A stretch of DNA of 64,000 nucleotides, from IMG/VR virus record IMGVR_UViG_2913112809_000002. One strand, written 5' to 3'. The translations under genes and the position numbers were made by a program. The stretch comes from a virus. Taxonomy: Duplodnaviria > Heunggongvirae > Uroviricota > Caudoviricetes. Numbering within the stretch: position 1 is the first letter of the stretch; every line of letters begins with the position of its first letter. The notes below the pieces were generated by a model. The model was given only the letters and a program-made list of their open reading frames with translations. It did not search any database and was not told the DNA's origin. Below, in pieces: positions 22,824 to 64,000 of the stretch.

Positions 22824-22898
<75 letters not shown>

Positions 22899-24848: not shown

Positions 24849-24850
24849 GT

Positions 24851-26450: not shown

Positions 26451-26543
26451 ACACGAAACAAACATACTGGAAGTTTTTACTCATATGGATAATTCCATTC
26501 TTGTGGGTGCGGCCCAATTGATTACAGCCATTAAGGGATAAAC

Positions 26544-26678: not shown

Positions 26679-26682
26679 CGAG

Positions 26683-28035: not shown

Positions 28036-28111
28036 ATTAAGCCCGCTGCCCACCTTGGCTACAGGCATACGCTTAGTGGCTGGGTCCTTTCCGGCGATCC
28101 GGCAGGCTACG

Positions 28112-28123
28112 GGGCGTCAGGCG
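28112..28123. other. cos: cosN-like cohesive-end site (gggcgtcaggcg), with lambda-like cosB flank
   Basis: Flank cgcgggttttcgctatttatgaaaaatttccggtttaaggcg matches lambda left end as recalled; 12-mer differs from lambda GGGCGGCGACCT. Confidence 0.55.
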
Positions 28124-28300
28124 CGCGGGTTTTCGCTATTTATGAAAAATTTCCGGTTTAAGGCGTTTCCGTTCTTCTTCGTCGTAACTTAATGTTTTTA
28201 TTTAAAACACCCCCTGAAAAGAAAGGAAACGACAGGTGCTGAAAACGGGCTTTTTGGCCTCTGTCGTTTCCTTTCTCTGTTTTTGTCCGTGGAATGAACA

Positions 28301-28820
28301 ATGGAAGTCAACAAAAAGCAGCTGGCTGACATTTTCGGCGCGAGTATCCGTACCATTCAGAACTGGCAGGAGCAGGGAATGCCCGTTCTGCGAGGCGGTG
28401 GGAAGGGTAATGAGGTGCTTTATGACTCTGCCGCCGTCATAAAATGGTATGCCGAAAGGGATGCTGAAATTGAGAACGAAAAGCTGCGCCGGGAGGTTGA
28501 AGAACTGCGACAGGCCAGCGAGACAGATCTCCAGCCAGGGACTATTGAGTACGAACGCCATCGACTTACGCGTGCGCAGGCCGACGCACAGGAGCTGAAA
28601 AATGCCAGAGACTCCGCTGAAGTGGTGGAAACTGCATTCTGTACTTTCGTGCTGTCGCGGATCGCAGGTGAAATTGCCAGTATTCTCGACGGGATCCCCC
28701 TGTCGGTGCAGCGGCGTTTTCCGGAACTGGAAAACCGACATGTTGATTTCCTGAAACGAGATATCATCAAAGCCATGAACAAAGCATCCGCGCTGGATGA
28801 ACTGATACCGGGGTTGCTGA

Positions 28821-28846
<26 letters not shown>
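28301..28846 (+). CDS. Nu1: Terminase small subunit Nu1
   Basis: MEVNKKQLADIFGASIRTIQNWQEQGMPVLRGGGKGNEVLYD... matches lambda Nu1. Confidence 0.95.
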
Positions 28847-32527
<3,681 letters not shown>

Positions 32528-47752: not shown

Positions 47753-50158
47753 GTGGATATGGCAGCGGTAAAAATCTCAGGTGTACTGAAAGATGGTGCG
47801 GGAAAACCAATACAGAACTGCACTATTCAACTGAAGGCAAAGCGTAACAGCACCACGGTACTGGTGAACACGGTGGCCTCTGAAAATCCGGATGAAGCCG
47901 GGCGTTACAGCATGGATGTTGAGCATGGCCAGTACAGCGTCACCCTGCTGGTTGAAGGTTTTCCGCCTTCACATGCCGGGACCATTACCGTCTATGAAGG
48001 TTCCAGACCAGGTACGCTGAATGATTTTCTCGGTGCCATGACGGAAGATGATGTCATGCCGGAGGCATTGCGTCGTTTTGAGGAAATGGTGGAAGAAGCG
48101 GCACGCAACGCTGAAGCCGCCTCTCAGAGCGCAGCGGCGGCAAAGAAATCCGAAACTGCAGCGGCATCATCGAAGAACGCGGCGAAAACCTCAGAAACGA
48201 ATGCAGCTAACAGCGCACAGGCGGCAGCGTCCTCGCAGACTGCATCGGCAAACTCCGCGACAGCAGCCAAAAAATCAGAAACCAACGCGAAAAACAGCGA
48301 GACAGCCGCAAAAACGAGTGAAACCAACGCAAAGTCCAGCCAGACGGCAGCGAAAACCAGCGAAACGAATGCCAAAGCCAGTGAAACTGCGGCGAAAAGC
48401 AGTCAGGATGCAGCAGCTGAAAGCGAGAGTGCGGCGGCCGGTTCTGCGACTTCAGCAGCCGGATCAGCAACTGCTGCGGCTAACAGTCAGAAAGCAGCGA
48501 AGACGAGTGAAACTAACGCAAAGTCCAGCCAGACGGCAGCGAAGACCAGCGAAACGAATGCCAAAGCCAGCGAAACTGCGGCGAAAAATAGCCAGAACGC
48601 AGCAGCCGAAAGCGAAAGTGCCGCAGCCGGTTCTGCAAGTGCGGCGGCTACTTCTGCCACTGCATCAGCCAACAGCCAAAAAGCAGCAAAAACCTGTGAA
48701 ACCAACGCAAAGGCGAGCGAAACAGCGGCTGCGAACTCGGCGAAAGCATCGGCAGCAAGCCAGACGGCAGCTAAAGCAAGTGAAGACGCCGCCAGAGAGT
48801 ATGCAAGCCAGGCAGCAGAGCCGTATAAATATGTCTTACAGCCGCTGCCTGATGTGTGGATACCGTTTAACGATTCGCTGGATATGATTACGGGTTTTTC
48901 GCCATCATATAAAAAGATTGTTATTGGTGATGATGAAATAACGATGCCTGGCGATAAGGTTGTAAAGTTTAAACGCGCATCGAAAGCAACCTATATTAAT
49001 AAATCTGGTGTGCTGACAGAGGCTGCCATTGACGAGCCACGATTTGAACGTGATGGCCTGCTTATTGAGGGGCAAAGAACAAACTACATGCTCAATTCGG
49101 AAAACCCTGCCAGTTGGGGGCGATCGTCAAATATGGATGTTCCCGAAACCGGGAAGGACAGTTTTGGTTTTACCTATGGAAAGTTCGTCTGTAACGATTC
49201 TCTGATTGGGCAAACCTCAGCCATTAATATGGCATCAATTGCTGCAACAAAGTCAGTTGATGTATCAGGCGATAATAAATACGTGACAACCTCATGTCGT
49301 TTTAAAACAGAACTGCAGGTAAGGTTGCGTATCCGGTTTGATAAATATGACGGTAGCGCAACAACTTTTCTTGGTGATGCGTATATTGATACACAAACGC
49401 TTGAAATTAATATGACAGGCGGTGCTGCCTCAAGGATTACAGCGAGAGTCAGAAAGGACGAAGCTACCGGATGGATTTTTGCAGAGGCAACAATTCAGGC
49501 AATTGATGGGGAGTTAAAAATAGGTTCTCAGATACAGTATTCTCCTAAGCAGGGCGGGGCAACCGTATCTGGTGACTATATTTATCTGGCCACCCCACAA
49601 GTAGAAAATGGGCCTTGTGTATCATCTTTTATTATATCAGGAACGACGGCGGCGACTCGTGCGAGTGATATGGTTACGATCCCGACCGAAAACAACATTT
49701 ATAACAGACCGCTTACTTGTTTGGTCGAGGTTAACAGGAATTGGGGCGATATTCCCCCTAATGTAGCACCGCGTATTTTTGATTTTTCTGGTGTGCCGCC
49801 TATTGAGTCAATCACATACGCTTTTAACACAACCGAGAAATATTACGGTCAGCTTTATATGCAAACTTATAAAGCGTCGACAAGTAGTTACGTTTCTAGT
49901 TTGTTTACTGGTCGAACTGATGTTCGAAAATTCGTTGGTGGTTTTAATATTTATTCTGATGGTACTAAACGAGTAGTTTCTAACGGTGAGGCTACTAAAA
50001 CTATGAAAACGGAGTGGACGGGCGTAAAAACACGGACCTTTATTCGAATTGGATGTCAAGCCACATCTGGAACTCGTCATCTATTCGGCCATTTGAGAAA
50101 TCTTCGTCTCTGGCATAAAGAATTAACTGATGCGCAAATGGGGGAGAGTATTAAATGA
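47753..50158 (+). CDS. stf: Side tail fibre protein Stf with internal Ala/Ser-rich tandem repeats
   Basis: 801 aa; repeated AAKTSETNAKSSQTAAKTSETNAKASETAAK units. Confidence 0.85.
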   Translation: MDMAAVKISGVLKDGAGKPIQNCTIQLKAKRNSTTVLVNTVASENPDEAGRYSMDVEHGQYSVTLLVEGFPPSHAGTITVYEGSRPGTLNDFLGAMTEDDVMPEALRRFEEMVEEAARNAEAASQSAAAAKKSETAAASSKNAAKTSETNAANSAQAAASSQTASANSATAAKKSETNAKNSETAAKTSETNAKSSQTAAKTSETNAKASETAAKSSQDAAAESESAAAGSATSAAGSATAAANSQKAAKTSETNAKSSQTAAKTSETNAKASETAAKNSQNAAAESESAAAGSASAAATSATASANSQKAAKTCETNAKASETAAANSAKASAASQTAAKASEDAAREYASQAAEPYKYVLQPLPDVWIPFNDSLDMITGFSPSYKKIVIGDDEITMPGDKVVKFKRASKATYINKSGVLTEAAIDEPRFERDGLLIEGQRTNYMLNSENPASWGRSSNMDVPETGKDSFGFTYGKFVCNDSLIGQTSAINMASIAATKSVDVSGDNKYVTTSCRFKTELQVRLRIRFDKYDGSATTFLGDAYIDTQTLEINMTGGAASRITARVRKDEATGWIFAEATIQAIDGELKIGSQIQYSPKQGGATVSGDYIYLATPQVENGPCVSSFIISGTTAATRASDMVTIPTENNIYNRPLTCLVEVNRNWGDIPPNVAPRIFDFSGVPPIESITYAFNTTEKYYGQLYMQTYKASTSSYVSSLFTGRTDVRKFVGGFNIYSDGTKRVVSNGEATKTMKTEWTGVKTRTFIRIGCQATSGTRHLFGHLRNLRLWHKELTDAQMGESIK

Positions 50159-50436
50159 AAGATTTAACACTTAAATTTTCTGACAGGGCCGACTTTTCGG
50201 CCTTTATGGATAGCACTGGCTATTATGATGACGAGTCGATGCAGGATGATATTCTTATTGACGTGGTAGGTAACGTGTACAAAGAAACCGGAGAACTGAC
50301 TGAAGATGGCGAACCGGTATGTGTTAAGGAAGACGGATATTTTGTAAACGTGCGCATCATTAATGATGTGAAAACACCGTCAATATTCGATGAATACGTG
50401 GTTGCTGTTGAGCATCAACTTCGTGGCTGGATGTGA
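50155..50436 (+). CDS. Hypothetical acidic protein between tail fibre genes
   Basis: 93-aa ORF overlapping stf stop. Confidence 0.4.
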   Translation: MKDLTLKFSDRADFSAFMDSTGYYDDESMQDDILIDVVGNVYKETGELTEDGEPVCVKEDGYFVNVRIINDVKTPSIFDEYVVAVEHQLRGWM

Positions 50437-50445
50437 GGAAGAATA

Positions 50446-51486
50446 ATGGCTACATCGACAGTAATTCCTGATGACATCAAAACGCTAAAATCCGATGTTA
50501 GCAAATTAAAAAACGAACAAGGAAGCTACGCAACAAAATCATATGTAGACAGCAAAAATGAAACCGTTGGTGACTGGTCTGCTGCATGGTATCAGCAGGT
50601 ATTGCCAACTAGCGGGGCTATATTTGGGCGAAAACTTCGCTCAACTCACAGGACGGCAGGTGTTGAGGATGCGTATTGCGAACTATACCTTAAAAAATGG
50701 ATAGACAGCCCAGGGAACGCAATGGCGCGCCTTAACCTGAACGATAACGGGACAAACATTTGCTGGGACTTTACCAACCTTTATGGCGGTACGATGATTT
50801 TTCCCGGTGATAGCGGATACCTCAAAATGGGTAACTGCCTTATGTCATACGGCAGGCGTGGAAGTAACGCGCTTATTAAATTTGATTACACCGACACATT
50901 ACAGATCAAATATGCCAATCATGGGTCAACCATGACATTAAACACACAGGGGACCGCTCATTCTGGCGCTACTACTAGTTTGTGGGGTAACTCTACCCGT
51001 CCGGTTGTATATGAAGTTGGTGCTGATGGTGGCGCGTATATGTTCTATGCGCAGAAAAATACCGATAACACCTATATGTTAAGCGTTAATGGTGCATGTC
51101 ATGCCACCGCATTTAACCAGCATTCCGACCGGGATCTGAAAGACAACATTCAGGTGATCGATAATGCAACCGACCGCATCCGTAAAATGAACGGCTATAC
51201 ATACACGCTTAAAGAAAACGGCATACCCTATGCTGGTGTCATTGCACAGGAAGCACTGGAAGCAATCCCAGAAGTTGTAGGTTCCGCAATGAAATATCAG
51301 GACGGTGCAAGCGGATCGGAAGGTGAAGAAGGTGAACGTTATTACACAGTAGATTATTCTGGTGTTACTGGCTTGCTTGTTCAGGTAGCCAGAGAGTCAG
51401 ACGACAGAATAACAGCACTGGAAGAAGAAAACATAGAATTAAAACAAAGATTATCTGCAATTGAGGCGGCGCTTGCGTCTAAATAA
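50446..51486 (+). CDS. Tail fibre/tailspike-like protein with C-terminal S74-type intramolecular chaperone domain
   Basis: C-terminal ...[52 protein letters not shown]... Confidence 0.55.
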
Positions 51487-51500
51487 TATTAAGGGGCCGT

Positions 51501-52928
51501 GTGTCCCGCTATAGTATTCTGGAGTATAAAGTGTCAGTTTTAATATCTGGTGAATTATTGGATGGTTCCGGTAGTCCAATGTCTGATTTTCGGATAATTA
51601 TAAAGGCGAAAGTAAATACGTATGCGGTGCTACAGAAAACCACATTTGATATCTTAACTAATGAAGCTGGTGAATATTCGTTTAATATTCAAACCGGAAA
51701 GTACAGCGTTTATTTAAAGCAGGGCTGGCATGATCAGTATTACGTCGGTGACATTGTTGTATTTGATGATTCAAAGCCTGGCACGCTGAACGACTTCCTG
51801 ACCGCTCTCGATGAAGGCGACCTGAAACCGGATGTAGTGAAACGTTTTGAGGAAATTGCGGATACGGTCAACCGTCTCTCTGAACAGGTGAGCAGTGACA
51901 GGGAGAAAGCAGAAGCGGCCGCTGATGCTGCAAAAAACGCAGCAACCACAGCTCTGGACAATAAAAATAAGGCGGAGGAATTTAAAGAACAATCACGGAA
52001 GAATGCCGAAATCGCTGCGGGATGCGCGCAAAGTGCCGGACAGCACGCTTCGGATGCTGCACAAACTGAAAAGCAGGTGGGAATCCTGGCGACAGATATT
52101 CGACAGAATGCAGGCGATGTTTATCAGAACGTACAGCATGTTGAGCGTCTGGCATCAGAAGTTGCGCAGAATGCCAGCCAGGTGCATCAGAATACCCTGA
52201 CAGTAACGGATGCAGCGCAGTCTGTGGAGCGGAATGCACAGCTGACAACGCAGTTAAGAAACGAAGCCGGTCGCTTTGCCGACGATTCCAGGAAAAGTTC
52301 AGAGGATGCAAAAGAGTACAGTGACAGTGCCAGAAAATTGGTCGATGAAATGAAATCTGTCAGTACTCATCCGGCAGGGATAGTTTTTGCATGGCCAGCG
52401 GATATTCCCCCGGAAGGATTTGCATTAATGCGGGGTCAGCCATTCGATAAATCTGCGTATCCACAACTGGCAACTGCATTTCCGTCAGGTGTAATACCTG
52501 ATATGCGAGGGTGGATAATAAAAGGCAAACCCGACGGGCGAGCTGTTCTGTCCCTTGAAGAGGACGGTGTTAAGCGGCACGAGCATACAGCAAAGGTGAT
52601 ACCGACGGATTTGGGTTCAAGGGAGACAAGTTCCTTTGATTATGGCTCTAAAAGCACAGAGTCAGGTGGAGAGCATAATCATATTGTTAATGGTGTGTGG
52701 GCTGGAACAACAACAAGGAACGGTGGAACAAAATGGGATACGCCAGGATATATAGCGGATATAACAACCAGCAGTGGCGGTACACATGCACATCGTACCA
52801 ATATAGGCCCACACGCCCATACCGTGGTGCTGGGTGAACATGGTCATGATGTTATGGTTGATGAGACGGGTAATGCAGAAAATACAGTTAAAAATATCGC
52901 GTTTAACTTCATTGTGAGGCTGGCATGA
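51501..52928 (+). CDS. Second Stf-like side tail fibre protein (divergent C-terminal domain)
   Basis: N-terminus resembles stf N-terminus (ISG.L.DG.G.P......I..KAK.N...VL, GTLNDFL). Confidence 0.55.
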
Positions 52929-53530
52929 CAAATTTCAAAATGAGTCCGGAATCCCGGACACTGAAAATTTATAACTTACGGGCTGATACAAAAGAGTATA
53001 TAGGCGCGGGAGATGTTTATATTCCACCGTATACAGGATTACCGGCGAACTGCACGCTTATCGAACCGCCAGAGGCTGGCCCCGGCCAGGTTGCCGTTTT
53101 CAACGATGCACAGCAACAGTGGGAAGTTGTTGAAGATCACCGTGGGAAAACGGTATATGACACAGCCACCGGGAAGACATTGTGCATTTCCCGTCCGGGG
53201 GCTTTGCCGGATGATATCACCACTTTACCGCCAGAGGGGGAATTCCATCGATGGGATGGTGCGAAATGGATAAAAGACGACGAGGCCGAAAGGGCGGCGA
53301 AAATTCGTGACGCTGAACGGGAGAAGCAAAAATTACTTCAGGAGATAATGGAAAAAACACAGCTGTGGCAAACGTGGCTGTCACTTGGGATTATCAGCGA
53401 AGCTGATAAAAAATCACTCAGGGAGTGGATGTTGTATGCCCAAAAAGTTGAAGCGACGGACACATCTGAATTACCTGTGAGATTTCCCGACAAACCGCTT
53501 ATTGCGGGTGAGCTATCCGGCACGGCGTAA
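52925..53530 (+). CDS. tfa: Tail fibre assembly protein Tfa
   Basis: 201 aa, N-terminal ...[29 protein letters not shown]...VAVFN...[15 protein letters not shown]. Confidence 0.8.
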
Positions 53531-53568
53531 AAAACCAAAAGATAATCGCAGGTTTTAAAGGCTGAAAA

Positions 53569-53817
53569 TATACCAATTGGTATACCAAGTTTATACCAAG
53601 AGCCCAAAAGGCAAAGGGGCTACCATTTGGTAACCCCTTGATTATTTGGCGGAAGCGCAGAGATTCGAACTCTGGAACCCTTTCGGGTCGCCGGTTTTCA
53701 AGACCGAAGAAAAACAAAGGAAAATCAATATAATACGGAAAAGTGATTAAAAGATAATCAACTTTAACCTCTAGAAAAATCAGGCTATTAGGTGGTTTTC
53801 TGAGTTTTTATACCAAG
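53569..53817. other. att-like region: repeated TATACCAAG arm-type motifs flanking a tRNA-Ser 3' fragment
   Basis: tataccaa at 53569, tataccaag at 53581 and 53809, ataccaag at 53593; tRNA fragment 53647..53705 between them; integrase immediately adjacent. Confidence 0.5.
53647..53705 (-). other. 3' fragment of a tRNA-Ser-like gene (anticodon loop to CCA end), putative att core
   Basis: Minus strand reads GGTCTTGAAAACCGGCGACCCGAAAGGGTTCCAGAGTTCGAATCTCTGCGCTTCCGCCA; no matching 5' half. Confidence 0.6.
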
Positions 53818-53846
53818 TATTTTTGCGAAAAGATTTTCTGAATTGT

Positions 53847-54866
53847 CTATTTACTAACCACAAGTGGCAAGTCCAGTGTTGGTGTGACTTTTGTTTTTCG
53901 ATCATAAATCAACACCTGATTTTCTGTTTTATGCCCACTGAAAATTTGTTTGTCGCGACTGCTGCCTTCGTAATCTGAAATCCCTTTGGCTTTTATGTCA
54001 TGGAAGTTGCACCCAAACGGAACACCGGCTTTTTGCTCCGCTGCGCGTTTAGCCTGATTCCACCAGTTGTTCAGCGTTTTGGCTATAACTTTCCCACCTT
54101 TGGTTGTATTGATCACATACTCGCATGTGCCGGAAGTTACATTTCGGGCTAACTGGATCGCGGTACGTAATCGCGGAGACCATTCCTTAATTTGTTTAGC
54201 ACCAGTCTTGTTTTGCTCAATGTAAATTCCTTTATCCATAATATCCTGCCATTTTAGCTCGAGCACATCACCGAGCCTTGCCGCACAAAGATAGGATATC
54301 TCCATTGCAATACGTAACTGCGGAATTGCTTCCGCATATATCGCAGCATATTGTTCATCAGTGATGTAAACAGTACGAGCTTTAAGCGTGAATTTTCTGA
54401 CTCCTTTGCATGGATTATTTTTCACATACCCACGCTCATACCCCCATCCGTATACGCGACTCAGACTTGCCAGTTCATGGTTTGCCTGGGTTTTGCTCTC
54501 TAGTCCTCGTTTATCCATGAAAATTCTTACCTGTTCAATTTTTACATTATCAGCAAGCACTTTACCGAATACCGCCAGCAACGCTCTTTGATGTTGCCGA
54601 TAATCTTTTTGGGTTCGGGGGGCCAGTTCTGTAAATGCAGGGGAGTCCATAAACATGTGCCATAATTTAGCGACGGTCATTATGTTGTGGAGTTTTGCTT
54701 TTTCCAGTTCATAATTTTGCCAGACTTTAGCTACGCTGGTTTCCCGCACTCTTCCGAGCCCTATAGTTCTTGTGCTTCCTTCGGGTTTCCATACATAACT
54801 GTAACCATTCGACCTGACACGTGGTGGCAGTGCATTATCTTTTTTGTTTTTTCTTGGTCTTCCCAT
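53847..54866 (-). CDS. int: Tyrosine integrase (lambda Int family)
   Basis: 339 aa; C-terminal catalytic region ...FHDIKAKG...GHKTENQVLIYDRK; adjacent to att-like region. Confidence 0.85.
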   Translation of the reverse strand: MGRPRKNKKDNALPPRVRSNGYSYVWKPEGSTRTIGLGRVRETSVAKVWQNYELEKAKLHNIMTVAKLWHMFMDSPAFTELAPRTQKDYRQHQRALLAVFGKVLADNVKIEQVRIFMDKRGLESKTQANHELASLSRVYGWGYERGYVKNNPCKGVRKFTLKARTVYITDEQYAAIYAEAIPQLRIAMEISYLCAARLGDVLELKWQDIMDKGIYIEQNKTGAKQIKEWSPRLRTAIQLARNVTSGTCEYVINTTKGGKVIAKTLNNWWNQAKRAAEQKAGVPFGCNFHDIKAKGISDYEGSSRDKQIFSGHKTENQVLIYDRKTKVTPTLDLPLVVSK

Positions 54867-55086
54867 TGTTCAGCGCCTCAAAATCGGGTTCAGCAGAAAC
54901 CAGTTCAGATACTTTCGGCATCGCGGTCGTTCCACGTGGAACATCACTGCGAAGAACTATTGGTTCGTTTTTAGGACCGGTTACAAATGGGATGCCGTGC
55001 AACCTTAACTGGTGTTGCTGTTTTGTGTATCGTTCGTATCTCGTAAGCTCTCTAATCTCTGCTGGCGATAGAGTTAATTCGTACAT
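54835..55086 (-). CDS. Possible excisionase-like protein
   Basis: 83-aa ORF overlapping int start; assignment by position only. Confidence 0.3.
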   Translation of the reverse strand: MYELTLSPAEIRELTRYERYTKQQHQLRLHGIPFVTGPKNEPIVLRSDVPRGTTAMPKVSELVSAEPDFEALNNGKTKKKQKR

Positions 55087-55152
55087 GTGGTCACGTGCCT
55101 TACAGCATGACCGCCGCCACTATAGCTGGTGGACGGCGATCAGGGTTGAACA

Positions 55153-57630
55153 TTAAAAATCAGTCTGATTAGGGATCAGTTTTTGCCAGATTGCTGAAAC
55201 GTATTTCGCCTGGTGGCGGGCGTCATCCAGTGCATTGTGGGGTACACCCTCGAACGGAATAGCCGCTCTGGCATCAAATTCCAGGGCTTTTCCCAGCTCA
55301 ACGATTGTGCGCACATCGCGATCGTTGTAGTAACGCCACGGACAGGGGATCCCCTGTCGTTCATGTGAACGGCGTAAAATCACGTTGTCGAAGTTAGCCC
55401 CATTTCCCCAGACCCGAACAAAAAATTCACCGGAGTTTTCGTCTATAAATTCACGCAACTGCAGCAGTGCATCATCCAACGGGATTTCATCGACCAGAAT
55501 GGCGGATTGCGCTTCGCGTGATTGTTTCAGCCACCATTTTATGGCGTCCCGATCAATGATTCCGCCTGCAGTTTCCAGATCAATAGTCTTAATAAATTCC
55601 GGCCCCATATCTCCGGTCTGCGGATCGAAAAATATTGCACCTATTGAGATAATCGGGGCATCAGGATTTTTTCCCATCGTTTCAAGGTCGATCATCAGAT
55701 GGTGCCACACCCTGCTGGTGGATGTGGTTTCATGATGACCGTTCACCTTAACTAAGGGATCAGTCGCCTCGCCAGTTTCATTATCGCTGACGTGGTCCTG
55801 ATCGCCGCCAGTGTTCTCCTTGTGCGGATGTTCAGTGCCTTCCATTTCCTCTGGAGCTTCTTCCCGAGATTCATCCTGATTTTCTCCATCGAATGTTTCC
55901 TGGTATGTTGCGTCGCCCATCACTGCACCACAATCAGGGCAGTTGCCACTGCCTGTCTGCCCGCAGGCGGTGCAAACTTTTTCCACTTCTTGTTGCACTA
56001 CTGGTTCAGGCTGTTTCGTTTCTGGCTCGTTTTGTAACGCATTTTGGCTGTTTTGTTCCGCTTTCTGGTCGTTTTGTTCCGTTTCTGTTTCTTGCAGGTT
56101 CTGGTTCACAGAATCGCGAGTCTGGATCCCCTTAACCCATTTTGGATCATTCGGGTCGCTAATCCCGTCAACAAATTCACCACGTGATACAGCAAGCAAC
56201 TTATCGGCGTCAGTCTGCTTGATATTGGCTGCCTGCATAATTTGGTTTACTTCGTCAGCGGTAACTTTTACCAGTTCCGGTTGTGCGATCGTGTCAGATG
56301 CACCAGTATTTTGTTGTGAACCTGAGTATGTGCCGTTTTTGCGGGCAAAATATTCTTCTTTCGTGATTTCAGTAGCCCCGGCAGCCAGCGCCTTATCCAG
56401 ACCTGAAAGTTTGTTTGCACGACCGTATTTTTCGCCATCCTTATCGGTGAATAGGAAGTAGAACGGCCCCTCACGCTCTACAGATGGTTCTGCTTCCACT
56501 TCGCATTCGGTTTTTTCGTTGTCCGGCATTGCCGTTTCCACTGCATTAGTTTCTGGTACTGGCGACGGGAGAGTATTAGTTGTGCTCTGATTTGTACCTT
56601 CATCTTCAAACACGCCCTTTGTAGTCAGGTATTCAGTGATGTATTTGTTCAGTGCCACGGGATCCTTGTGAATGTCGATCGGACGCTCACGGACAAGGCC
56701 AAAAATAGTCTGACGGTCATAGCGAATGGCATCAGGCTGTTTGCGCATTGATGCGGAAATACGCTTCCAGTCTTCGCGATCGTTCTCGATAACTTCATTT
56801 TTTGCCCAGCGATGGATGCTGCCGTCAATGTTTCCGGCATCAATGTCACCAGGCCACAGAGCGTAGGCCAGCTCATCATCCAGTGTTTTCCATGTCTGCT
56901 TGTATTCGCGACGAATGACAGCAGTGACAGGGGGGATTTTTTCTGCTGAGTTTTCAGTGTGCTGTCGGTTGACTCTGGCGCGGGCGAGATCAACAACAGA
57001 AGTATATTTCCCGGTTTCTTTTCGTTCGGCTTCGCGACGTTTTTTCCAGGCGCGTAATTCAGTCTGGATCTCAGGCCATTTTGCCCCCGGCTTACATTTA
57101 TGTTTAACCCACCCGATGGCGAACAGCTTAAGCTCCGGATACATGATGTTAACTTCAGGCATTTTCATTAATGCTTCAACGATATGCCCGTCGAATGTTG
57201 CCATGTCTTCCTGCAGTAACTCCTGTGCGCTAATCACCATATCAACGGTGATGTTTTCACATGTACCGAACTTAACCAGGACCGCGTTCTGTACTTCAAG
57301 GGACAGTTTGTCAAAATTGACGTTCATCGGATCGGATTCTGGTTCGACCAGGACAAAAGAAGCTGAGTTTTCATCCCAGCGATTTTCCTGCATATATTCG
57401 GTATCCCAGGAATCGAGGGCAGGGCGTGGCATGCCGGGCTTATCCTCACAGACAATAATTTTATAAGCGCAGTCCTGAGCTGCCGGATATTGCTCCAGGA
57501 ATAACCAGCCAAATTTAGCTCTTGCGCGGCGTTCGTCGCCGGCTTCAATGGCAGTGGCTACAGCAACAGCACCTTCTTCCTTTATTGCCTGTTCGTCCGG
57601 CATGGCGGCGCAAATAAAGACTTTACTCAT
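55153..57630 (-). CDS. RecE-like exonuclease with C-terminal DnaQ-like 3'-5' exonuclease-type region
   Basis: 825 aa; acidic low-complexity linker; C-terminal MIDLETMG...H..DD motifs. Confidence 0.6.
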   Translation of the reverse strand: MSKVFICAAMPDEQAIKEEGAVAVATAIEAGDERRARAKFGWLFLEQYPAAQDCAYKIIVCEDKPGMPRPALDSWDTEYMQENRWDENSASFVLVEPESDPMNVNFDKLSLEVQNAVLVKFGTCENITVDMVISAQELLQEDMATFDGHIVEALMKMPEVNIMYPELKLFAIGWVKHKCKPGAKWPEIQTELRAWKKRREAERKETGKYTSVVDLARARVNRQHTENSAEKIPPVTAVIRREYKQTWKTLDDELAYALWPGDIDAGNIDGSIHRWAKNEVIENDREDWKRISASMRKQPDAIRYDRQTIFGLVRERPIDIHKDPVALNKYITEYLTTKGVFEDEGTNQSTTNTLPSPVPETNAVETAMPDNEKTECEVEAEPSVEREGPFYFLFTDKDGEKYGRANKLSGLDKALAAGATEITKEEYFARKNGTYSGSQQNTGASDTIAQPELVKVTADEVNQIMQAANIKQTDADKLLAVSRGEFVDGISDPNDPKWVKGIQTRDSVNQNLQETETEQNDQKAEQNSQNALQNEPETKQPEPVVQQEVEKVCTACGQTGSGNCPDCGAVMGDATYQETFDGENQDESREEAPEEMEGTEHPHKENTGGDQDHVSDNETGEATDPLVKVNGHHETTSTSRVWHHLMIDLETMGKNPDAPIISIGAIFFDPQTGDMGPEFIKTIDLETAGGIIDRDAIKWWLKQSREAQSAILVDEIPLDDALLQLREFIDENSGEFFVRVWGNGANFDNVILRRSHERQGIPCPWRYYNDRDVRTIVELGKALEFDARAAIPFEGVPHNALDDARHQAKYVSAIWQKLIPNQTDF

Positions 57631-57723
57631 TTTGTTTTAACCTCATTGCAGATTTAAGGATGAACAAATCCCTGCCATTGCTGGCATATAAAAATGGAAC
57701 CGGATATTTACTGCAGGTCTGTT

Positions 57724-57915
57724 TTAAAGCCCTGCCGGGATTTCGCTATTATCTGTGTGAATAACTTTATCGACCGGATAACAGTTACCGGGAATTTTCT
57801 GTTCGTCTGCGGCGGTCGTGCATTCTTTCATTGAGCCGTATACGCCTGTGACCAGGTCAACAGGCTCTCCGGTATTAAGGAAAACTGTCAGAACAAGTGC
57901 AAATGCAGTATTCAT
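57724..57915 (-). CDS. ydfD: YdfD-like small lysis-associated protein
   Basis: MNTAFALVLTVFLNTGEPVD...KIPGNCYPVDKVIH.DN.EIPAGL resembles K-12 YdfD as recalled. Confidence 0.55.
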   Translation of the reverse strand: MNTAFALVLTVFLNTGEPVDLVTGVYGSMKECTTAADEQKIPGNCYPVDKVIHTDNSEIPAGL

Positions 57916-58100
57916 TGCAAGCATCCTTTTTTCATCAGGTTTAAGCGAGCCATCTTTGAAGCAATGCATACTTTATTTAATAAATCCGGCATGCGCTTTA
58001 TCTGATTAATGGCATCCTCAATAAAAGTTTTATCACCAGTTATAACGCCAATTTCAAAACGGGTTTCAGGCGTAGTGGAATTGAGTAATAACGTTTCCAT
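57912..58100 (-). CDS. dicB: Cell division inhibitor DicB
   Basis: 62 aa METLLLNSTTPETRFEIGV...EDAIN...LLNKVCIASKMARLNLMKKGCLQ resembles K-12 DicB as recalled. Confidence 0.75.
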   Translation of the reverse strand: METLLLNSTTPETRFEIGVITGDKTFIEDAINQIKRMPDLLNKVCIASKMARLNLMKKGCLQ

Positions 58101-58254
58101 TATCGCGTCCTCAACAATGAATTTTGTGATGCGGTGCCTGGTGCCTCCAGGTGACGTTAACCAGTTAACAATTAACGCCGGAGTATTTCACCCATAAGGT
58201 CGCTTGTTTTAACTGTTCCGCGTGCGCTTAGCCGCATTCACCGCATCACAAAAT

Positions 58255-58325
58255 TCACTTTAAAAAGGGCGGGTATCACAAGGGAAAACAAAAAACGGAT
58301 ACCCGCCAAAAGGTAATCAACATGG
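58255..58325 (-). ncRNA. dicF: DicF-like sRNA candidate
   Basis: Upstream of dicB; minus strand reads ...ccttttggcgggtatccgttttttgttttcccttgtgatacccgccctttttaaag (hairpin + U-run), resembles DicF 3' half as recalled. Confidence 0.4.
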
Positions 58326-58555
58326 GTTGTTGTAGCTGATTGCCACAACCGGAAGCGCACGGACGAAGATGCCGGCGGCACGCAACAGAGGGAGAAATAA
58401 CTTCGCCGTGCGCTTTCGTGTTGTGCCCTGACTTTTCAGGGATATATCCTTTCAGTAAACTGTCAGTGCCGGATTCTTATCCGTGTCCGGCGCACGACAA
58501 CACGCTGTCACGTGTGGTCTCCATTCTCAACCAGTAACCTCAATGGAGGATAAAA

Positions 58556-58764
58556 TGCCAAACAAACCAATACATCCGCTTATTGAAAAACAGATTGAAT
58601 GTCTGGTTAATCAACTCAGGCAATCAGGGTTATTAAAAACTCATTCAGAGCTAGGGCTCACAGAATCGGCATTCGACGATAAATTAAACAATGCGCTTTA
58701 TAATGGCATCATTGATTACAATCGTGGTGCTGGTCGCCGTGGCCCTGCTGGTACAGCTTTGTAA
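58556..58764 (+). CDS. Hypothetical protein, convergent with 58765..59403
   Basis: SD ggagga before ATG; 69 aa. Confidence 0.35.
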
Positions 58765-59403
58765 TTACCAGTTAATCCAGAGCGGATAGTGTTCAGCATA
58801 AATATAGCTATACACATCCAGGTTGTATTTGCGGTCTGTCCTTAGCAGGTCGCAAATACAGGCCGCAGCTTCCAGGGCAGCAGCTTTGTTGCTGAATAAC
58901 CATGTAGCAACATTCCAGCGATTATCTGTATCCCACTCTTTTGCGAGAGTTGACACCACGAAGGAGCCGTTGGTGTTGCCATCAAATACTTCCGTTTCCA
59001 GATTTTTAAGTAATGCCTGGTGAATTCTTGCCAGGTATTCAGTCGGAATTTCGCCACGAATTCTGATAAGGTTGTCATAAACAAACATATTCCCCGTATA
59101 TGGCGATTTTTCTTTCCTGCATTTTAAGCCAGCATCACGGGTAAACTGGTCAATTTCTTCTTCGGTTTGTTTCGTATTGATGTTTTGCGTTATCGTTTCT
59201 GCAATGGGCTTTGCTTTATTTTCTACACAATGATTGTTTGTGAACGAATCTGAATACAGTCCGGTAAAAGAATTGCGGACATGATTTGATAAATTTCTGA
59301 TGAACACTTTATCTACTAATATCATTGGGTTCCGCGCCAGTTGCGAGCGAATCACATCAGCGGCCATTTCCTGTATTGATATTGGTAAATCTTTAAATTC
59401 CAT
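58765..59403 (-). CDS. Hypothetical protein (212 aa) in early-left operon
   Basis: AT-rich ORF between ydfB-like gene and DicF-like region; no recognised domain. Confidence 0.5.
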   Translation of the reverse strand: MEFKDLPISIQEMAADVIRSQLARNPMILVDKVFIRNLSNHVRNSFTGLYSDSFTNNHCVENKAKPIAETITQNINTKQTEEEIDQFTRDAGLKCRKEKSPYTGNMFVYDNLIRIRGEIPTEYLARIHQALLKNLETEVFDGNTNGSFVVSTLAKEWDTDNRWNVATWLFSNKAAALEAAACICDLLRTDRKYNLDVYSYIYAEHYPLWINW

Positions 59404-59414
59404 CTTTAACCCCG

Positions 59415-59543
59415 TTAGTCGATAGATTTTGTCGAACTGGAAAGCGCCTGTTTAAACTCACTGAAGCTGAGAGTTTCTTCGCCTTCGGCAAGGCCTTCGA
59501 AGTATTCTTCGTAAGCCTTTTCCATGATTGCGTCGAAATCCAT
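59415..59543 (-). CDS. ydfB: YdfB-like small protein
   Basis: Manual translation MDFDAIMEKAYEEYFEGLAEGEETLSFSEFKQALSSSTKSID (42 aa). Confidence 0.55.
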   Translation of the reverse strand: MDFDAIMEKAYEEYFEGLAEGEETLSFSEFKQALSSSTKSID

Positions 59544-59544
59544 A

Positions 59545-59700
59545 TCACTCACCTGAGTTTCTTTCCAGCCAGCGACGTGCGCCAGCTTCGGTTTTAAACG
59601 TTTTGCTTTTGGTATACGTCATCGCGGTGAACGTACCGTCCTGGTTGGGGAACACGCCGCATACCAGAGATTCGTTGTTGCCAAGATCGATAGTATCCAT
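59545..59700 (-). CDS. ydfA: YdfA-like small protein
   Basis: MDTIDLGNNESLVCGVFPNQDGTFTAMTYTKSKTFKTEAGARRWLERNSGE. Confidence 0.6.
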   Translation of the reverse strand: MDTIDLGNNESLVCGVFPNQDGTFTAMTYTKSKTFKTEAGARRWLERNSGE

Positions 59701-59878
59701 GTTGACCTCATTTCCCCTTAACGCCGGGGTAGCGGAACAAAAACCTGCTGCATAGTTAAAGTTGAACCCTGCCGTCATGTTCTTACGCCTCGGGCTGGCT
59801 ACTTACCCCCTGACCACTGCCTGGTAACTCGAAGTATTGCCCTGCGTTCTGTGGGGCGGGGTGGGTTGGTATGCAATA

Positions 59879-59955
59879 AATCTAAAAGTATTTAGTTTTA
59901 TAGTCAAGGGGAATCTAAATTAATTTAAAAAAAAGGTCGGCATAACCGACCTTAA
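59879..59955. promoter_or_regulatory. OL-like operators and terminator downstream of cI-like gene
   Basis: aatctaaaagtatttagtt resembles OR palindrome aatctaaaaatacttagatt; ggtcgg/ccgacc hairpin with T8 on minus strand. Confidence 0.4.
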
Positions 59956-59974
59956 GTTCAAGGACATGGCAGTG

Positions 59975-60622
59975 TTATAGGTTGAACTGTACACCTTTTG
60001 CTACGGCAACAATTTTACACTCTGGCGTAAGCAAGGATGATTGATAGCGCGGATTGAGAGGGCTTAAATACACAAGTTTTCCATCAATAACTAATTTTTT
60101 TATAGTCATAGACGGTTCATTTGTAAGTGGATCTGGAACTATTACAGCGACAATACTGCCATTTTTATAACTTTCTCCTGGTCTTAGGATCACAGTGGCA
60201 CCAACCGGGATACTCGGCGACCCTGAGGGGTTATGCATAGTGTCATCAGGCATTGAAACGGCAAAATCACCTTCCACTACATCAAAGAATGTGGTGATCC
60301 TATCGACATTTCCCATTGTTTTCTCTCCTTCTAAGATTAGGAAAGAAATCGCGTCACCCCACGAAAAGTAGGGGATCTTGGTGCCTGGATTGCTCTGCAC
60401 AAAAGATAGTTCAGGAGACGATACTCCATACAGGAGATAGGACTCAGTAGTTCCTAATGCTTGGGCTAACTTACTTAGAGCTTTGCTGCCGGGTTCGTTT
60501 AGATCTTTCTCCCAGTACCCTATAGTAACCCCAGTCACGCCTGAAAGCTTACCCAGTTCTACCTGGGTGAGTCCCTTATCTTTTCTGAGTTTCTTAAGCC
60601 TGATGCCAAGGCTTTCCATCAT
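59975..60622 (-). CDS. CI-like repressor (HTH + S24 peptidase)
   Basis: 215 aa; N-terminal HTH LTQVELGKLSGVTGVTIGYWE; C-terminal peptidase-like domain. Confidence 0.85.
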   Translation of the reverse strand: MMESLGIRLKKLRKDKGLTQVELGKLSGVTGVTIGYWEKDLNEPGSKALSKLAQALGTTESYLLYGVSSPELSFVQSNPGTKIPYFSWGDAISFLILEGEKTMGNVDRITTFFDVVEGDFAVSMPDDTMHNPSGSPSIPVGATVILRPGESYKNGSIVAVIVPDPLTNEPSMTIKKLVIDGKLVYLSPLNPRYQSSLLTPECKIVAVAKGVQFNL

Positions 60623-60719
60623 TTTCTCCCGCGAGTTGAATATAAATTATTTTAGATTGCATTGACCTAAAAAAAAATTATCCTGTAATCTAAAAATACT
60701 TAGATTTTAGGAGAGTGAA
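60623..60719. promoter_or_regulatory. OR operator/promoter region
   Basis: TTAGATT / AATCTAA half-sites at 60653, 60687 and 60700. Confidence 0.5.
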
Positions 60720-60947
60720 ATGCGAGTTGATGAACTTGTTCAGTTTTTTGGCTCTGTTCAGAGGGTCGCTGATTTTTATGGGATAACCCGCGAAGCTATT
60801 TACATGTGGCGTAAGCGCCCCGGTGAAATAGTTCCGAAAGGGAGAGCTGCGGAAGCTGCTGCATACTCCAAGGGAAAATTATCTTTGAACCCAGAACTTT
60901 ACAAAAAGAATGATACCACCCGGGACGAAAGGAAGAGTGATTCATGA
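60720..60947 (+). CDS. Cro-like HTH regulator
   Basis: 75 aa, SD aggagag, divergent from cI-like gene. Confidence 0.6.
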   Translation: MRVDELVQFFGSVQRVADFYGITREAIYMWRKRPGEIVPKGRAAEAAAYSKGKLSLNPELYKKNDTTRDERKSDS

Positions 60948-61369
60948 AAATCAAGCATGAACACATCCGCATGGCGATGAAAGCCTGGGCGCATCCGGAT
61001 GGCGAGAAAGTACCAACTGCGAAGATTACCAAAGCATATTTTGAACTGGGAATGACGTTTCCGGAGCTGTACGACGATTCACATCCGGAAGGCCTGGCTC
61101 GTAATACCCAGAAAATTTTCCGCTGGGTGGAGAAAGACACCCCTGATGCGGTTAAAAAAATTCAGGCGCTTTTACCAGCGATCGAAAAGGCAATGCCACC
61201 TCTGCTGGTGGCCCGAATGCGCAGCCACAGTTCAGCCTATTTTCGGGAGCTGGTGGAGACGCGGGAACGACTGGTGAGAGACGCTGATGATTTTGTCGCA
61301 GTGGCAATCACTGGTTTCAATCAGATGAATCGTGGTGGTCCGGCGGGAAATGCCGTGGTGATGCACTAA
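60944..61369 (+). CDS. CII-position regulator (YdaT-like by recollection)
   Basis: 141 aa, translationally coupled to cro-like gene. Confidence 0.4.
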   Translation: MKIKHEHIRMAMKAWAHPDGEKVPTAKITKAYFELGMTFPELYDDSHPEGLARNTQKIFRWVEKDTPDAVKKIQALLPAIEKAMPPLLVARMRSHSSAYFRELVETRERLVRDADDFVAVAITGFNQMNRGGPAGNAVVMH

Positions 61370-61392
61370 AAGCACGGTGTTCGGAGTTTTAT

Positions 61393-62340
61393 ATGAGCAG
61401 CAAGCTTCATGGTCTTGTCTGGGAAGGGTGTGCCTTCACCGGCATGATCTTATCCCGGGTAGCAGTAATGGCTCGCCTTGCAGACTACAGCAATGACGAA
61501 GGTGTGTCATGGCCTGCAGTGGAGACTATTCGTCGTCAGATTGGGGCAAAGAGTGAATCAACGGTTAAAGCTGCGATAGCGGAACTGGAAAAGAACGGCT
61601 GGCTGACGAAGGAGGAACGTAAGGTCGGTGGGCGTAATGTAAGCAATATTTACCGCCTTAATGTGGAAAAACTTGAAGCAGCAGCGGCGGCGGCGCGTGA
61701 GGCATATAAACCGAAAAGAAAAATTAACCCGGTAAAAAATGACCCGTCAAATATTGACCCCTCAACGGTTGACCCGTCAAATTTTGATGGATCAACAGTT
61801 GATAAAAAACAGCCGGTTAGGGGGGCGATGGTTGGCCCCGATCCGTCAGTATTAAAACCTGATCCGTCAGATAAAAGATCTTCTTGTCCGGACGCTTCGC
61901 AACCGGACCCGCAGACGGCTGAACAGGATTTTTTAACCCGACACCCTGACGCTGTTGTGTTCAGTGCGAAAAAACGCCAGTGGGGCAGCCAGGAAGATTT
62001 GGCGTGTGCGCAGTGGATCTGGGGGCGAATCGTGAGTCTTTACGAGCAGGCCGCCAGCGATGATGGCGAGCTCATGCGACCGAAAGAACCCAACTGGGCT
62101 GCATGGGCCAATGATGTGCGCACAATGCGGATGCTGGATGGCAGAACTCACAGACAAATTTGTGAAATGTTTGGTCGGGTACAGCGGGATCCATTCTGGG
62201 TAAAAAACATCATGAGCCCGTCAAAGCTCCGCGAAAAATGGGACGAACTGGTCATTCGCCTGGGGCGTTCGCCTGTACAGCGTTGTGTGAATCACATTTC
62301 TGAACCGGATACCGAAATTCCGCAGGGCTTCAGGGGGTGA
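61393..62340 (+). CDS. Replication initiator O-like protein with internal iterons
   Basis: 315 aa; N-terminal HTH-like region; NDPSNIDPSTVDPSNFDGSTVD peptide repeats encoded by DNA iterons. Confidence 0.55.
   Translation: MSSKLHGLVWEGCAFTGMILSRVAVMARLADYSNDEGVSWPAVETIRRQIGAKSESTVKAAIAELEKNGWLTKEERKVGGRNVSNIYRLNVEKLEAAAAAAREAYKPKRKINPVKNDPSNIDPSTVDPSNFDGSTVDKKQPVRGAMVGPDPSVLKPDPSDKRSSCPDASQPDPQTAEQDFLTRHPDAVVFSAKKRQWGSQEDLACAQWIWGRIVSLYEQAASDDGELMRPKEPNWAAWANDVRTMRMLDGRTHRQICEMFGRVQRDPFWVKNIMSPSKLREKWDELVIRLGRSPVQRCVNHISEPDTEIPQGFRG
61735..61810. repeat. Iteron array (putative origin)
   Basis: Direct repeats tgacccgtcaaat / ttgacccctcaacgg / ttgacccgtcaaatt / ttgatggatcaacag. Confidence 0.5.
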
Positions 62341-62380
62341 GTGTTTATTTCAGATCATGAGGTAATTTTCAGGAGGGTTT

Positions 62381-62797
62381 GTGGCAAAAGTATTTACACA
62401 AGAAGAGCGGGAAAAAATTAAGGGGCAGGTTGTTGAACTCGTGCGCCAGAGCGGGCGCGAGACGCTACGACAACTGGAAGCTAAGACGGGTGCGACAAGA
62501 TATCTGATGAGTGTTCTCGCCAGAGAGCTGGTTGCCAGTGGCGATGTATACAATTCTGGCTACGGATTATTTCCGTCTGAACAGGCTCGTAAGGACTGGA
62601 TAAAGGCCCGCAAAAAGATGTCGAAAGCAGCAGTGAAAAAAAAGAGCGACCCGGACCTGGTTTATTCATTACCAGACGGAGAAATACGCCGCTACGACAG
62701 GCGTCTGAACATAATCTGTCGCGAGTGTCGGAAAAGCGAAGCTATGCAGCGTGTACTGGCGTTCTATCAGGGTAATTTTCAGGAGGTGCTTTTGTGA
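62381..62797 (+). CDS. Hypothetical protein (replication-module position)
   Basis: 138-aa ORF downstream of initiator. Confidence 0.4.
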   Translation: MAKVFTQEEREKIKGQVVELVRQSGRETLRQLEAKTGATRYLMSVLARELVASGDVYNSGYGLFPSEQARKDWIKARKKMSKAAVKKKSDPDLVYSLPDGEIRRYDRRLNIICRECRKSEAMQRVLAFYQGNFQEVLL

Positions 62798-63372
62798 GCA
62801 AAATTAACTATCAGGCACTGCGTGATGCGGCACAGAACGCGAGAGATTTAGGTGGGATTAAGAATTACAAGCGAGGTGAGCAAGCTGTTGCCGAATTTGA
62901 GTCCTTGATAACGCCACACCTTGTGCTTGCGTTACTGGATGAGCTGGAAATTAAAAGCAAACGAATTAACGAGTTAATCAAGGGCGGTGAAAACGCCAAA
63001 TACGTGACGGAAATTTTCCGACTTGAGAAAGAACGCATGGCTCTGGCGGCGGAGAATGCTGGGCTGAAGGCGATATGTGATGACCGTCGCAGGTTCATCA
63101 TGAATGCGGTGCAACTTGGGCATATCAAAGCGCCAGCAATGAAAACAAAATCGGGGCTTGAAACAATTCGTATTGCTATATCACCACAAAAGCCCACTCC
63201 GGCCACCGATGTTTTTCTGGCTGAAGTACGGGCGTGGGCGTTTAACGACCTTTGCGCGGCGTTTGTCAGGCACGCAAAAGTTGCAGGGCTGGATGATGCC
63301 GATACCGTAACGCTTAATGAAGCAACGGATGCGCTGCTGCATTGTGTGGAACAGCTTCGCGCTCCAGAATAA
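62794..63372 (+). CDS. Ea22-like protein
   Basis: GTG start (M)SKINYQ...; homologous to 16068..16631 and 17110..17310. Confidence 0.5.
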   Translation: MSKINYQALRDAAQNARDLGGIKNYKRGEQAVAEFESLITPHLVLALLDELEIKSKRINELIKGGENAKYVTEIFRLEKERMALAAENAGLKAICDDRRRFIMNAVQLGHIKAPAMKTKSGLETIRIAISPQKPTPATDVFLAEVRAWAFNDLCAAFVRHAKVAGLDDADTVTLNEATDALLHCVEQLRAPE

Positions 63373-63469
63373 TTAAATTTAGTACTGTAAATAAAATTTA
63401 ATCCTTAACCGGAGGGATTCCTGCAACCTCAATACATCAGGAGTCCGTCCGAAAGGGCGGTAATGAAAA

Positions 63470-64000
63470 ATGACAGAATTAACCAAAGAGCAATTAATCG
63501 AAGAAGCCAAATTAAAAATAGCGATTGCGAAATGCCACCCCAATTCAGGGATGGCGCGGGTAGAGGGCGAGTTATTCAAAATTGCACTGACATCGCTGGA
63601 AGTAGAACCGATAGCGTGGGAATGCGGCGAAAACATAATCCTGTTTAATCCTGACACAGTTGAAGCATATGCAAAACGTGCGGAGATATCACCTAAACCA
63701 CTATTCGCCGCCCCGCCAGTGCTGCCTGATAGACCGGTAGTATCGCTGGAAGCAGAGCCAGTTGTAGTAAACGACGACATGGCTTACGCATTTCACCATG
63801 CGCTTTCTGACTCATCGCTTGGCTCTGATGAAATCGAAGAAATTAAAACCGGGTTGCGTGCTGCCTTTGCCAATGCCACCGTCCAGCCAGCACTGATAGT
63901 GCCGGATGAAATCGAGCCAGACGATAGCAATACGTTTGATTATGTTGATGGCTGGAATGCCTGCCGCGAGGCCATGCTTCAGGATAATAGGGGGAAGTAA
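63470..64000 (+). CDS. DUF551-like protein
   Basis: 176 aa; IALTSLEVEPIAWE motif shared with 18061..18591; stop at window end. Confidence 0.5.
   Translation: MTELTKEQLIEEAKLKIAIAKCHPNSGMARVEGELFKIALTSLEVEPIAWECGENIILFNPDTVEAYAKRAEISPKPLFAAPPVLPDRPVVSLEAEPVVVNDDMAYAFHHALSDSSLGSDEIEEIKTGLRAAFANATVQPALIVPDEIEPDDSNTFDYVDGWNACREAMLQDNRGK

Follow-up and report, generated by a model that had tools for sequence, protein, structure and literature searches.

A probable attP for the tRNA gene serT, in complete POP′ form, in a contig with lambdoid prophages

Phages P22, at thrW, and HP1, at a tRNA-Leu gene, have tRNA-targeting attPs with the crossover in the anticodon loop, and in the attP of mycobacteriophage L5, at a tRNA-Gly gene, the arm-type sites have been mapped. 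In all three the phage carries the 3′ part of the tRNA, so that integration restores the gene, and an identity block running from the anticodon stem to the 3′ end is flanked by arm-type repeats. The locus described here appears to have both properties. It differs from these attPs in its target (serT), its integrase lineage and its arm motif, and also in that the phage carries a diverged copy of the host terminator with a built-in IHF consensus.

The attP of phage lambda is the other close relation. Common to both are a POP′ layout of ~250 bp, phased tandem arm-type repeats in one arm with a further site or sites in the other, and IHF consensus sites between arms and core (consensus matches in our case); the integrase is a heterobivalent tyrosine integrase homologous to lambda Int over the full length, and the order is again tail fibres, attP, int, xis, with int read towards attP. 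The differences are several. The core here is a 65-nt segment of a tRNA gene identical to attB, whereas the lambda core has 15 bp. The three tandem sites are on the int-distal arm, and the 3′ part of the tRNA together with the terminator hairpin separates them from the presumed crossover by 99-130 bp. The arm motif is TATACCAAG and not the lambda arm consensus, the excisionase is a DUF4224 protein, and a Lys occupies the position of lambda R311.

Prophage integration at serT is known from STEC O121:H19, CC119 STEC and E. albertii (PMC8767318, PMC10132054, PMC10673567). The chromosomal target of those prophages is the same; the passages on serT in these papers come without attP anatomy, and the site here is in unrecombined POP′ form. 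We found no description of the anatomy of this attP in the literature on serT attPs or on arm-type sites at tRNA genes. As an integration locus serT was already known; the attP described here is a well-resolved one. Our understanding of site-specific recombination is unchanged by the result. It does provide precise prophage boundaries for a common Escherichia prophage family, many members of which carry type III effector cargo beside the site, as well as a candidate integrase/attP pair (255-bp attP, serT attB) for single-copy integration vectors.

Core, arms and neighbouring genes

We analysed a stretch of 64,000 nt, referred to as the window, which corresponds to positions 51293-115292 of contig PDHY01000019.1 (GCA_004745255.1). 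Positions 53565-53820 are very probably the attP with which a temperate lambdoid phage of 46.5 kb inserts itself into the tRNA-Ser(UGA) gene serT. The whole site, P arm, core and P′ arm together, takes ~255 bp and has no strand assigned; its left limit was set at the start of homology against four unrelated left contexts and its right limit just beyond the fourth arm site. Judged by its sequence, the site is in complete POP′, i.e. unrecombined, form. It belongs to a well-known kind, the lambda-like attP, and is a real and well-formed member of it: every feature of the kind that can be read from DNA was found, IHF sites as consensus matches only, while arm binding and crossover position are predictions.

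The core is a 65-nt block of identity with attB (53642-53706, minus strand) made up of the 3′ part of serT (60 nt) and 5 nt downstream. On the minus strand 53647-53706 agrees base for base with the 3′-terminal 60 nt of serT, tRNA-Ser(UGA), from E. coli K-12; the identity begins at tRNA position 28, which belongs to the 5′ side of the anticodon stem, and reaches the CCA and 5 nt past the 3′ end. The initial annotation had recognized a 59-nt 3′ portion of a tRNA-Ser gene on the minus strand (53647-53705) and had proposed its alignment to the host genes; this alignment, which defines the 65-nt block, bears out the identity and makes the tRNA fragment one base longer. The statement that the 5′ half is missing holds as well. 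The DNA 5′ of tRNA position 28 is AT-rich P′ arm sequence, ARAGORN detected no complete cloverleaf or functional tRNA-Ser at the site (four phage tRNAs were detected elsewhere in the window), between 52500 and 55000 Rfam matched no tRNA, and a single copy of the T-arm/acceptor 26-mer is present in the whole window. A search for a known RNA family in Rfam at E≤1 returned an S. pombe snoRNA only, with 32 bits against a gathering score of 50; the hit was dismissed as spurious.

The block CCGGT-TTTCAAG-ACCG (53691-53706, no strand assigned) is the anticodon stem-loop. Its parts are predicted to be core-type sites, CCGGT at 53691-53695 and ACCG at 53703-53706, on both sides of an overlap, the anticodon-loop segment TTTCAAG at 53696-53702. 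Natural junctions cannot place the crossover, since attP and attB are identical over the whole block. All serT-targeting families that we examined lose the tRNA identity within the same 5′ strand of the anticodon stem, after 59-62 nt. The anticodon-loop sublocation class of tRNA integration, summarised in bioRxiv 10.1101/2020.11.02.365908, is the one into which this attP appears to fit, with a block from the anticodon stem to the 3′ end and a gene that would be restored on integration. From the common end-point and the sublocation class we infer that strand exchange most likely takes place in the 7-bp segment 53696-53702.

The P arm (53565-53641), on the tfa side, contains phased repeats with start-to-start distances of 12 and 11 bp, followed by a hairpin and an IHF consensus. 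Arm-type site 1, TATACCAAT (53569-53577, plus strand), is the left half of the palindrome TATACCAATTGGTATA; site 2, TATACCAAG (53581-53589, plus strand), comes 12 bp after site 1, and site 3, again TATACCAAG (53592-53600, plus strand), 11 bp after site 2. Site 4, the same TATACCAAG (53809-53817, plus strand), is in the P′ arm, 30 bp from the stop codon of int. Four motifs, three at 53569-53600 and one at 53809-53817, had been reported initially; all are present and all are on the plus strand, but an inverted TATACCAAT copy (53576-53584, minus strand) had been overlooked, which overlaps sites 1 and 2 and creates the palindrome TATACCAATTGGTATA. The full inventory is four direct copies and one inverted copy of TATACCAA(G/T), found in both arms. 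Exact TATACCAAG occurs in three copies in the 64 kb, all at the attP. Matches with at most one mismatch are not enriched in the window as a whole (8 against 8.5 expected), though five of these eight lie within 249 bp, or 0.39% of the window (binomial probability ~5e-11). The repeats are best read as arm-type sites for the integrase, as had been suggested: the same 9-mer is present in both arms, it is invariant in relatives, and the Int is predicted to be of the heterobivalent lambda type.

Between these repeats and the core a terminator scan, folding and similarity to the K-12 serT terminator hairpin pointed to an 11-bp hairpin followed by TGCCTTTTGG (53614-53639, minus strand). Read in the direction of the tRNA and int, from 53639 to 53614, the hairpin is followed by a T-rich tail. 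It is a diverged phage-borne counterpart of the host serT terminator with a presumed function in termination, and as such would terminate the rebuilt serT in the lysogen and the int transcripts in the attP form. Integration places it immediately after the rebuilt tRNA gene. Retroregulation of the sib type by this hairpin was considered and set aside, because in the lysogen a homologous host hairpin fills the same place and the two states would be alike.

An IHF consensus, AATCAAGGGGTTA (53631-53643, minus strand), overlaps the hairpin and is located between the core and the three arm sites; it is the sole match without mismatches to WATCAANNNNTTR in the 64 kb. The P′ arm (53707-53820), on the int side, is AT-rich and contains, besides arm site 4, two IHF-like sites on the plus strand with one mismatch each, at 53723-53735 and at 53778-53790 (AATCAGGCTATTA). 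In five aligned relatives the 13-mer matching 53778-53790, AATCAAGATATTA or AATCAAGGTATTA, is a perfect IHF consensus. Taking 53631-53919 together, we counted one perfect match and three matches with one mismatch, against 0.23 expected from the window-wide density, these being matches to the consensus only.

The flanks are phage-like on both sides, with tfa on one and int and xis on the other, and the tRNA fragment lies between tfa and int, in agreement with the initial annotation; clear bacterial sequence was found on neither side of the fragment. The tail fibre assembly gene tfa (52925-53530, plus strand; Pfam Caudo_TAP, E 3.5e-28) is the last late gene of the phage. It borders the P arm and closes the tail-fibre module and a lambda-like head/tail module, 96.6% identical to lambda. 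On the right, the gene of a 339-aa integrase of lambda-Int type (53847-54866, minus strand) is transcribed towards the site, and the start of int is overlapped by the gene of a DUF4224 excisionase (54835-55086, minus strand; PF13986, E 3e-10; PHROG 1266, excisionase, E 2.6e-20). Further right, after int and xis, is a gene for an 825-aa exonuclease, also transcribed towards the site.

In a phmmer comparison with lambda Int (PDB 1Z1B; E 2.3e-18) residues 1-318 were aligned to 1-339, and the tyrosine-recombinase domain was recognized by PF00589 with 34.2 bits (cut-off 27.1). The Pfam model of the arm-binding domain, PF09003, had no match to Int at E≤1. The phmmer alignment begins at residue 1 in both proteins and spans lambda Int 1-64; therefore the arm-binding N-domain is included, and Int, as far as homology can tell, is a heterobivalent lambda-type integrase with an N-terminal arm-binding domain. 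Equivalents of the lambda catalytic residues R212, K235, H308, H333 and Y342 are all present. At the position of catalytic Arg311 the integrase subfamily has a Lys (residue 292 in the window Int), in the motif FHDIKAK; this substitution was seen in the window, in phages Evi and BUCT708 and in IMG/VR relatives.

By analogy with lambda, the N-terminal domain of Int would bind the TATACCAA(G) arm sites, three phased at 11-12 bp in the P arm and one in P′, and its central and catalytic domains would bind the core. Bends of the IHF type at 53631-53643, 53723-53735 and 53778-53790 would fold the arms back to the core, and strand exchange would most likely take place in the 7 bp of the anticodon loop (53696-53702), with the anticodon stem, symmetric by nature, on both sides. 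As the phage copy of serT, from the anticodon stem to the CCA, comes with a terminator hairpin of its own, integration would rebuild a complete and terminated serT at the tail-fibre end (attR); a displaced 3′ fragment of serT would be left beside int (attL, the yccA side). Excision would need the adjacent DUF4224 excisionase. Protein binding to the repeats, the use of IHF, the exact point of crossover and the function of the terminator are predictions in this scheme.

Upstream of the site we saw two successive tail-fibre sets (47753-53530). The first consists of an 801-aa fibre and a 346-aa protein (Pfam Peptidase_S74 in the contig annotation; tail fibre protein in PHROGs), the second of a 475-aa fibre and tfa. 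The tfa protein is on record in two assemblies only.

Junctions in a sister genome and conservation in relatives

The same phage is present in VATS01000001.1 as a single 46.5-kb prophage at serT. Between the window and this prophage we observed 0 substitutions in the compared regions (17588-31735 and 42925-64000), with one-base indels as the only differences. At its tfa-side junction (attR) VATS01000001.1 agrees with the window at 100% as far as 53706, beyond which come the 5′ half of serT and hyaA; the tfa protein that adjoins attR, serT and hyaA there is identical to that of the window. At the int-side junction the match, going from 64000 via int and the P′ arm to the core, is 99.9%, and beyond the core lie the host terminator and yccA; over core, P′ arm and int alone, this attL agrees with the window at 100%. 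In a four-way alignment of the window attP, the K-12 attB and the VATS01 attL and attR the relation POP′ + BOB′ = BOP′ + POB′ is exact, and the switch between the P half (as in attR) and the P′ half (as in attL) falls inside the 65-nt core shared with attB.

Since the tfa side and the int side are the two ends of one prophage in VATS01000001.1, both sides of the site in the window come from one phage. The main reading of the initial annotation, a phage-borne attP core, is upheld by this comparison, as the site in the window combines the P half found in attR with the P′ half found in attL of one phage, each at 100% identity. The alternative that it had offered, a displaced fragment between tandem prophages, is rejected in the form that involves two different phages; a tandem dimer of the same phage would leave the nature of the site unchanged. 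The phage circle closes when followed from 17498/17588 to 53530, through attP, then from 53847 to 64000 and over a further ~10 bp back to 17498.

In VATS01 the host DNA around serT (flanks at loci L020/L014) reaches only ~92% identity with E. coli K-12 and ~91% with the type strain of E. albertii, which points to another Escherichia lineage as the probable host.

A 97%-related prophage was found at serT in the closed genome of E. coli DCE7, where the attP × attB arithmetic holds too. The order from one end is hyaA, complete serT, hairpin, three TATACCAA repeats, tfa remnant and effector cargo, and then onward tail/head genes, int, TATACCAAG, the displaced 3′ fragment of serT, the host terminator and yccA; full serT at attR is common to DCE7 and VATS01. 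Of the contigs that carry the identical Int protein, 24 were read. In 10 of the 10 places shown, int is next to yccA at serT, and the genes that follow are yccA, tusE, yccX, rlmI and hspQ, on the downstream side of serT. Homologues covering at least 80% of the core, P′ arm and int stretch were detected in 742 of 5,426 complete E. coli genomes.

Isolated phage Evi has a homologous site with 93.6% identity and the same order of tail fibre, attP and int; among the best-matching isolated phages examined, the site was common to Evi alone. Phages mEp460_ev081 and HannyBb, the best DNA matches of the surrounding region, have a different integrase of 426-431 aa and are uninformative for the att site.

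A footprint alignment was made from six POP′ sequences with four different left contexts. Homology starts abruptly at 53565/6, the left flanks being unrelated; the repeats and the hairpin are essentially invariant, and the P′ arm varies at about one-quarter of its positions. Of the nine bases of arm site 1 eight are invariant in the six attP relatives, the first T being C in one IMG/VR locus (L059). Arm site 4 is invariant (TATACCAAGT) inside a variable 5′ flank (GTTTT, GTTAA or GCTAG). When species-representative genomes were scanned for exact arm repeats, the only match was in the E. albertii type strain; the arm and hairpin sequence is found beside serT in E. coli genomes and in this strain.

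Arm motifs and integrase N-domains in serT-targeting families

A scan of IMG/VR for the 3′ segment of serT gave 50 loci, which fall into families built on the same plan: three repeats phased ~11 bp apart beside a hairpin, with the motifs TATACCAAC, TATTCTAAG, TATTCTTCG and TTTCTAAC, and a related motif in the opposite arm at a fixed position, ~115-125 bp in. In an automated comparison of cognate and non-cognate arms based on 8-mers, the cognate pairs matched in 15 of 19 cases and the controls in 32%; this test was noisy, because the background is too high in AT-rich arms. It was replaced by inspection at fixed positions and by comparing identities of the N-domain and of the body of the integrases. 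Compared with the window Int, those from loci with TATTCTAA arms (L040, L065) have 76% identity in the body and 48-56% in the N-domain, while for Ints from loci with TATACCAA arms (L027, L060) the figures are 62-66% and 63%. Therefore the motif tracks the N-domain, as arm recognition predicts.

These data bear on whether the TATACCAAG repeats could be incidental, or sites of another protein, such as the excisionase or a regulator of tfa or int, and not arm sites of Int. In lambda the tandem direct repeats in one arm serve Xis too, and the automated covariation test was weak, both of which speak for such an explanation. We nevertheless consider it improbable given that the same 9-mer is present in both arms and stays invariant in relatives with variable neighbours, that homologous attPs have different motifs at the same places, tracking the Int N-domain, and that Int has an N-domain of the lambda type, which requires such sites.

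The two arms of the window match each other. At IMG/VR loci L028, L041, L071 and L073 they are mismatched, which is, as far as such sequences can be read, the look of true hybrid junctions in tandem arrays. As a simple sequence rule, a site with matching arm motifs is a cognate attP, and one with mismatched motifs a hybrid formed within a tandem array. A point against our reading of the site comes from BUCT708: it is a true phage genome, and TATTCT is all that its arms have in common.

Stenotrophomonas phage vB_SmeS_BUCT708 (L006, OM816834.1) has at 2743-4200 an attP of the enterobacterial serT type, with three TATTCTAAG-type repeats, a hairpin and an exact 3′ part of serT; the homologous Int (54% identity) is on the opposite side of the attP. 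The arm and hairpin sequence of BUCT708 was also seen at an IMG/VR junction (L034), where it runs into complete serT and flanking DNA. The recorded host of BUCT708 may be worth checking. A decayed copy of the window attP is carried by the STEC PPompW prophages, with degenerate arm repeats, a hairpin and a mutated serT fragment; in PPompW_132418 (L005, LC567822.1) this copy, at ~7001-7132, is between tail genes and type III secretion effector cargo (espO, nleG, espM) and looks like a fossil of an older right end.

How an unrecombined site may have come to lie in this contig

The setting is odd, as an intact attP is found inside a 115-kb chromosomal contig. Left of 17588 the window contains a different lambdoid prophage, prophage A, which is Stx-phage-like and in reverse orientation (Rz, R, tRNAs, Q, nin, P, O, then cI, N, kil, Sak4, SSB and others); from 17588 on it is the serT phage of VATS01, one-base indels aside. 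In the region 17498-18407 the two have in common an 820-bp exact repeat at 17588-18407, which we call the R repeat and within which the window passes from prophage A to the serT phage. At its end (window-equivalent 64001-64461) the contig reaches 361 bp into another copy of the R repeat and therefore walks once round the phage circle. The order in the contig is the left part of A, the R repeat, late genes, attP, early genes and the R repeat again, so the phage appears circularly permuted and joined to the other prophage. The two occupy separate loci in VATS01, where prophage A is found around 84-96 kb and the position of the serT phage is 4.06-4.11 Mb.

An account that would explain the contig as it stands is that an excised 46.5-kb phage re-entered the chromosome by Campbell-type recombination into prophage A through the R repeat (17588-18407) and is now nested in it, still excisable and keeping a ready-to-use attP. 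We advance it tentatively, as one half of a joint proposal with somewhat less than an even chance of being right; the other half is that the serT integrases form a clade with Lys for the second catalytic Arg, in which specificities of N-domain and arm sites appear to be interchangeable. The nested prophage and the conserved Lys at the Arg-II position are small points worth mentioning. Alternatively, the attP may be true in sequence while the contig goes back either to two copies of this phage in tandem at serT or to phage DNA in circular or concatemeric form, the assembler having joined this DNA to A at the R repeat. To this possibility we give a chance close to even, though slightly below it: a contig end 361 bp into the second R repeat amounts to one lap of the phage circle, an 820-bp exact repeat is available for the join, the two prophages are at separate loci in the sister genome, and a single copy of tfa is on record for the assembly. 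A mis-join at the R repeat is required, however, where Campbell-type recombination of the excised circle into A needs none, and the 1-nt indels between the two assemblies may hint at long reads, which would span the repeat.

Other ways of producing a POP′ order are far less probable. Were the site a hybrid between two different prophages in tandem at serT, its P arm would belong to the left phage and its P′ arm to the right one. Tandem arrays at serT are real: the closed genome of E. coli Z1323CEC0003 has the order yccA, int1, prophage body, tfa, EspF, a POP′-like site and int2, two or three tandem prophages at serT are described for CC119 STEC in the passages on this locus in PMC10132054, and the four IMG/VR loci with mismatched arms are of this appearance. 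In the present case we find a hybrid barely credible, as the tfa and int sides are the ends of one 46.5-kb prophage in VATS01000001.1 with 0 substitutions, the two arms have matching motifs, and the DNA left of the late genes joins prophage A at the 820-bp repeat and not an int-proximal early region. It is likewise very unlikely that the assembler cross-joined attL and attR of a lysogen at the core and so created a false POP′. Since attL and attR share the 65-nt core exactly and have similar hairpins beside it, the two might not be told apart at small k, but a second independent mis-join, at the R repeat, would be needed in the same contig, the same POP′ order is seen in Evi, a phage isolate, as well as in closed E. 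coli genomes and IMG/VR contigs, and a false join of this kind would still give the sequence that excision produces. Under both accounts of the contig given above, nesting in prophage A and dimeric or circular DNA, the site itself is the attP of one phage.

The serT array of Z1323CEC0003 (NZ_CP148493.1; L001/L081/L082) is a genuine tandem array, in which 45 kb separate the two int copies. Its second prophage abuts yegL/ibsA at the right end and not serT-hyaA, which suggests a prophage-mediated chromosomal rearrangement.

One-base indels at 19137 and 20929 split two genes of the window, one for an ORF6N anti-repressor (18928-19504) and one for a DUF968 protein (20374-21362). The VATS01 prophage, identical in other respects, has intact copies of both, and the split ones may be sequencing errors or fresh pseudogenes. 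Each of the two prophages has one pair of phage tRNAs, Thr(UGU) and Asn(GUU) at 2123-2278 (minus strand) and Thr(UGU) and Gly(UCC) at 22745-22898 (plus strand), in both cases just downstream of the Q antiterminator gene.
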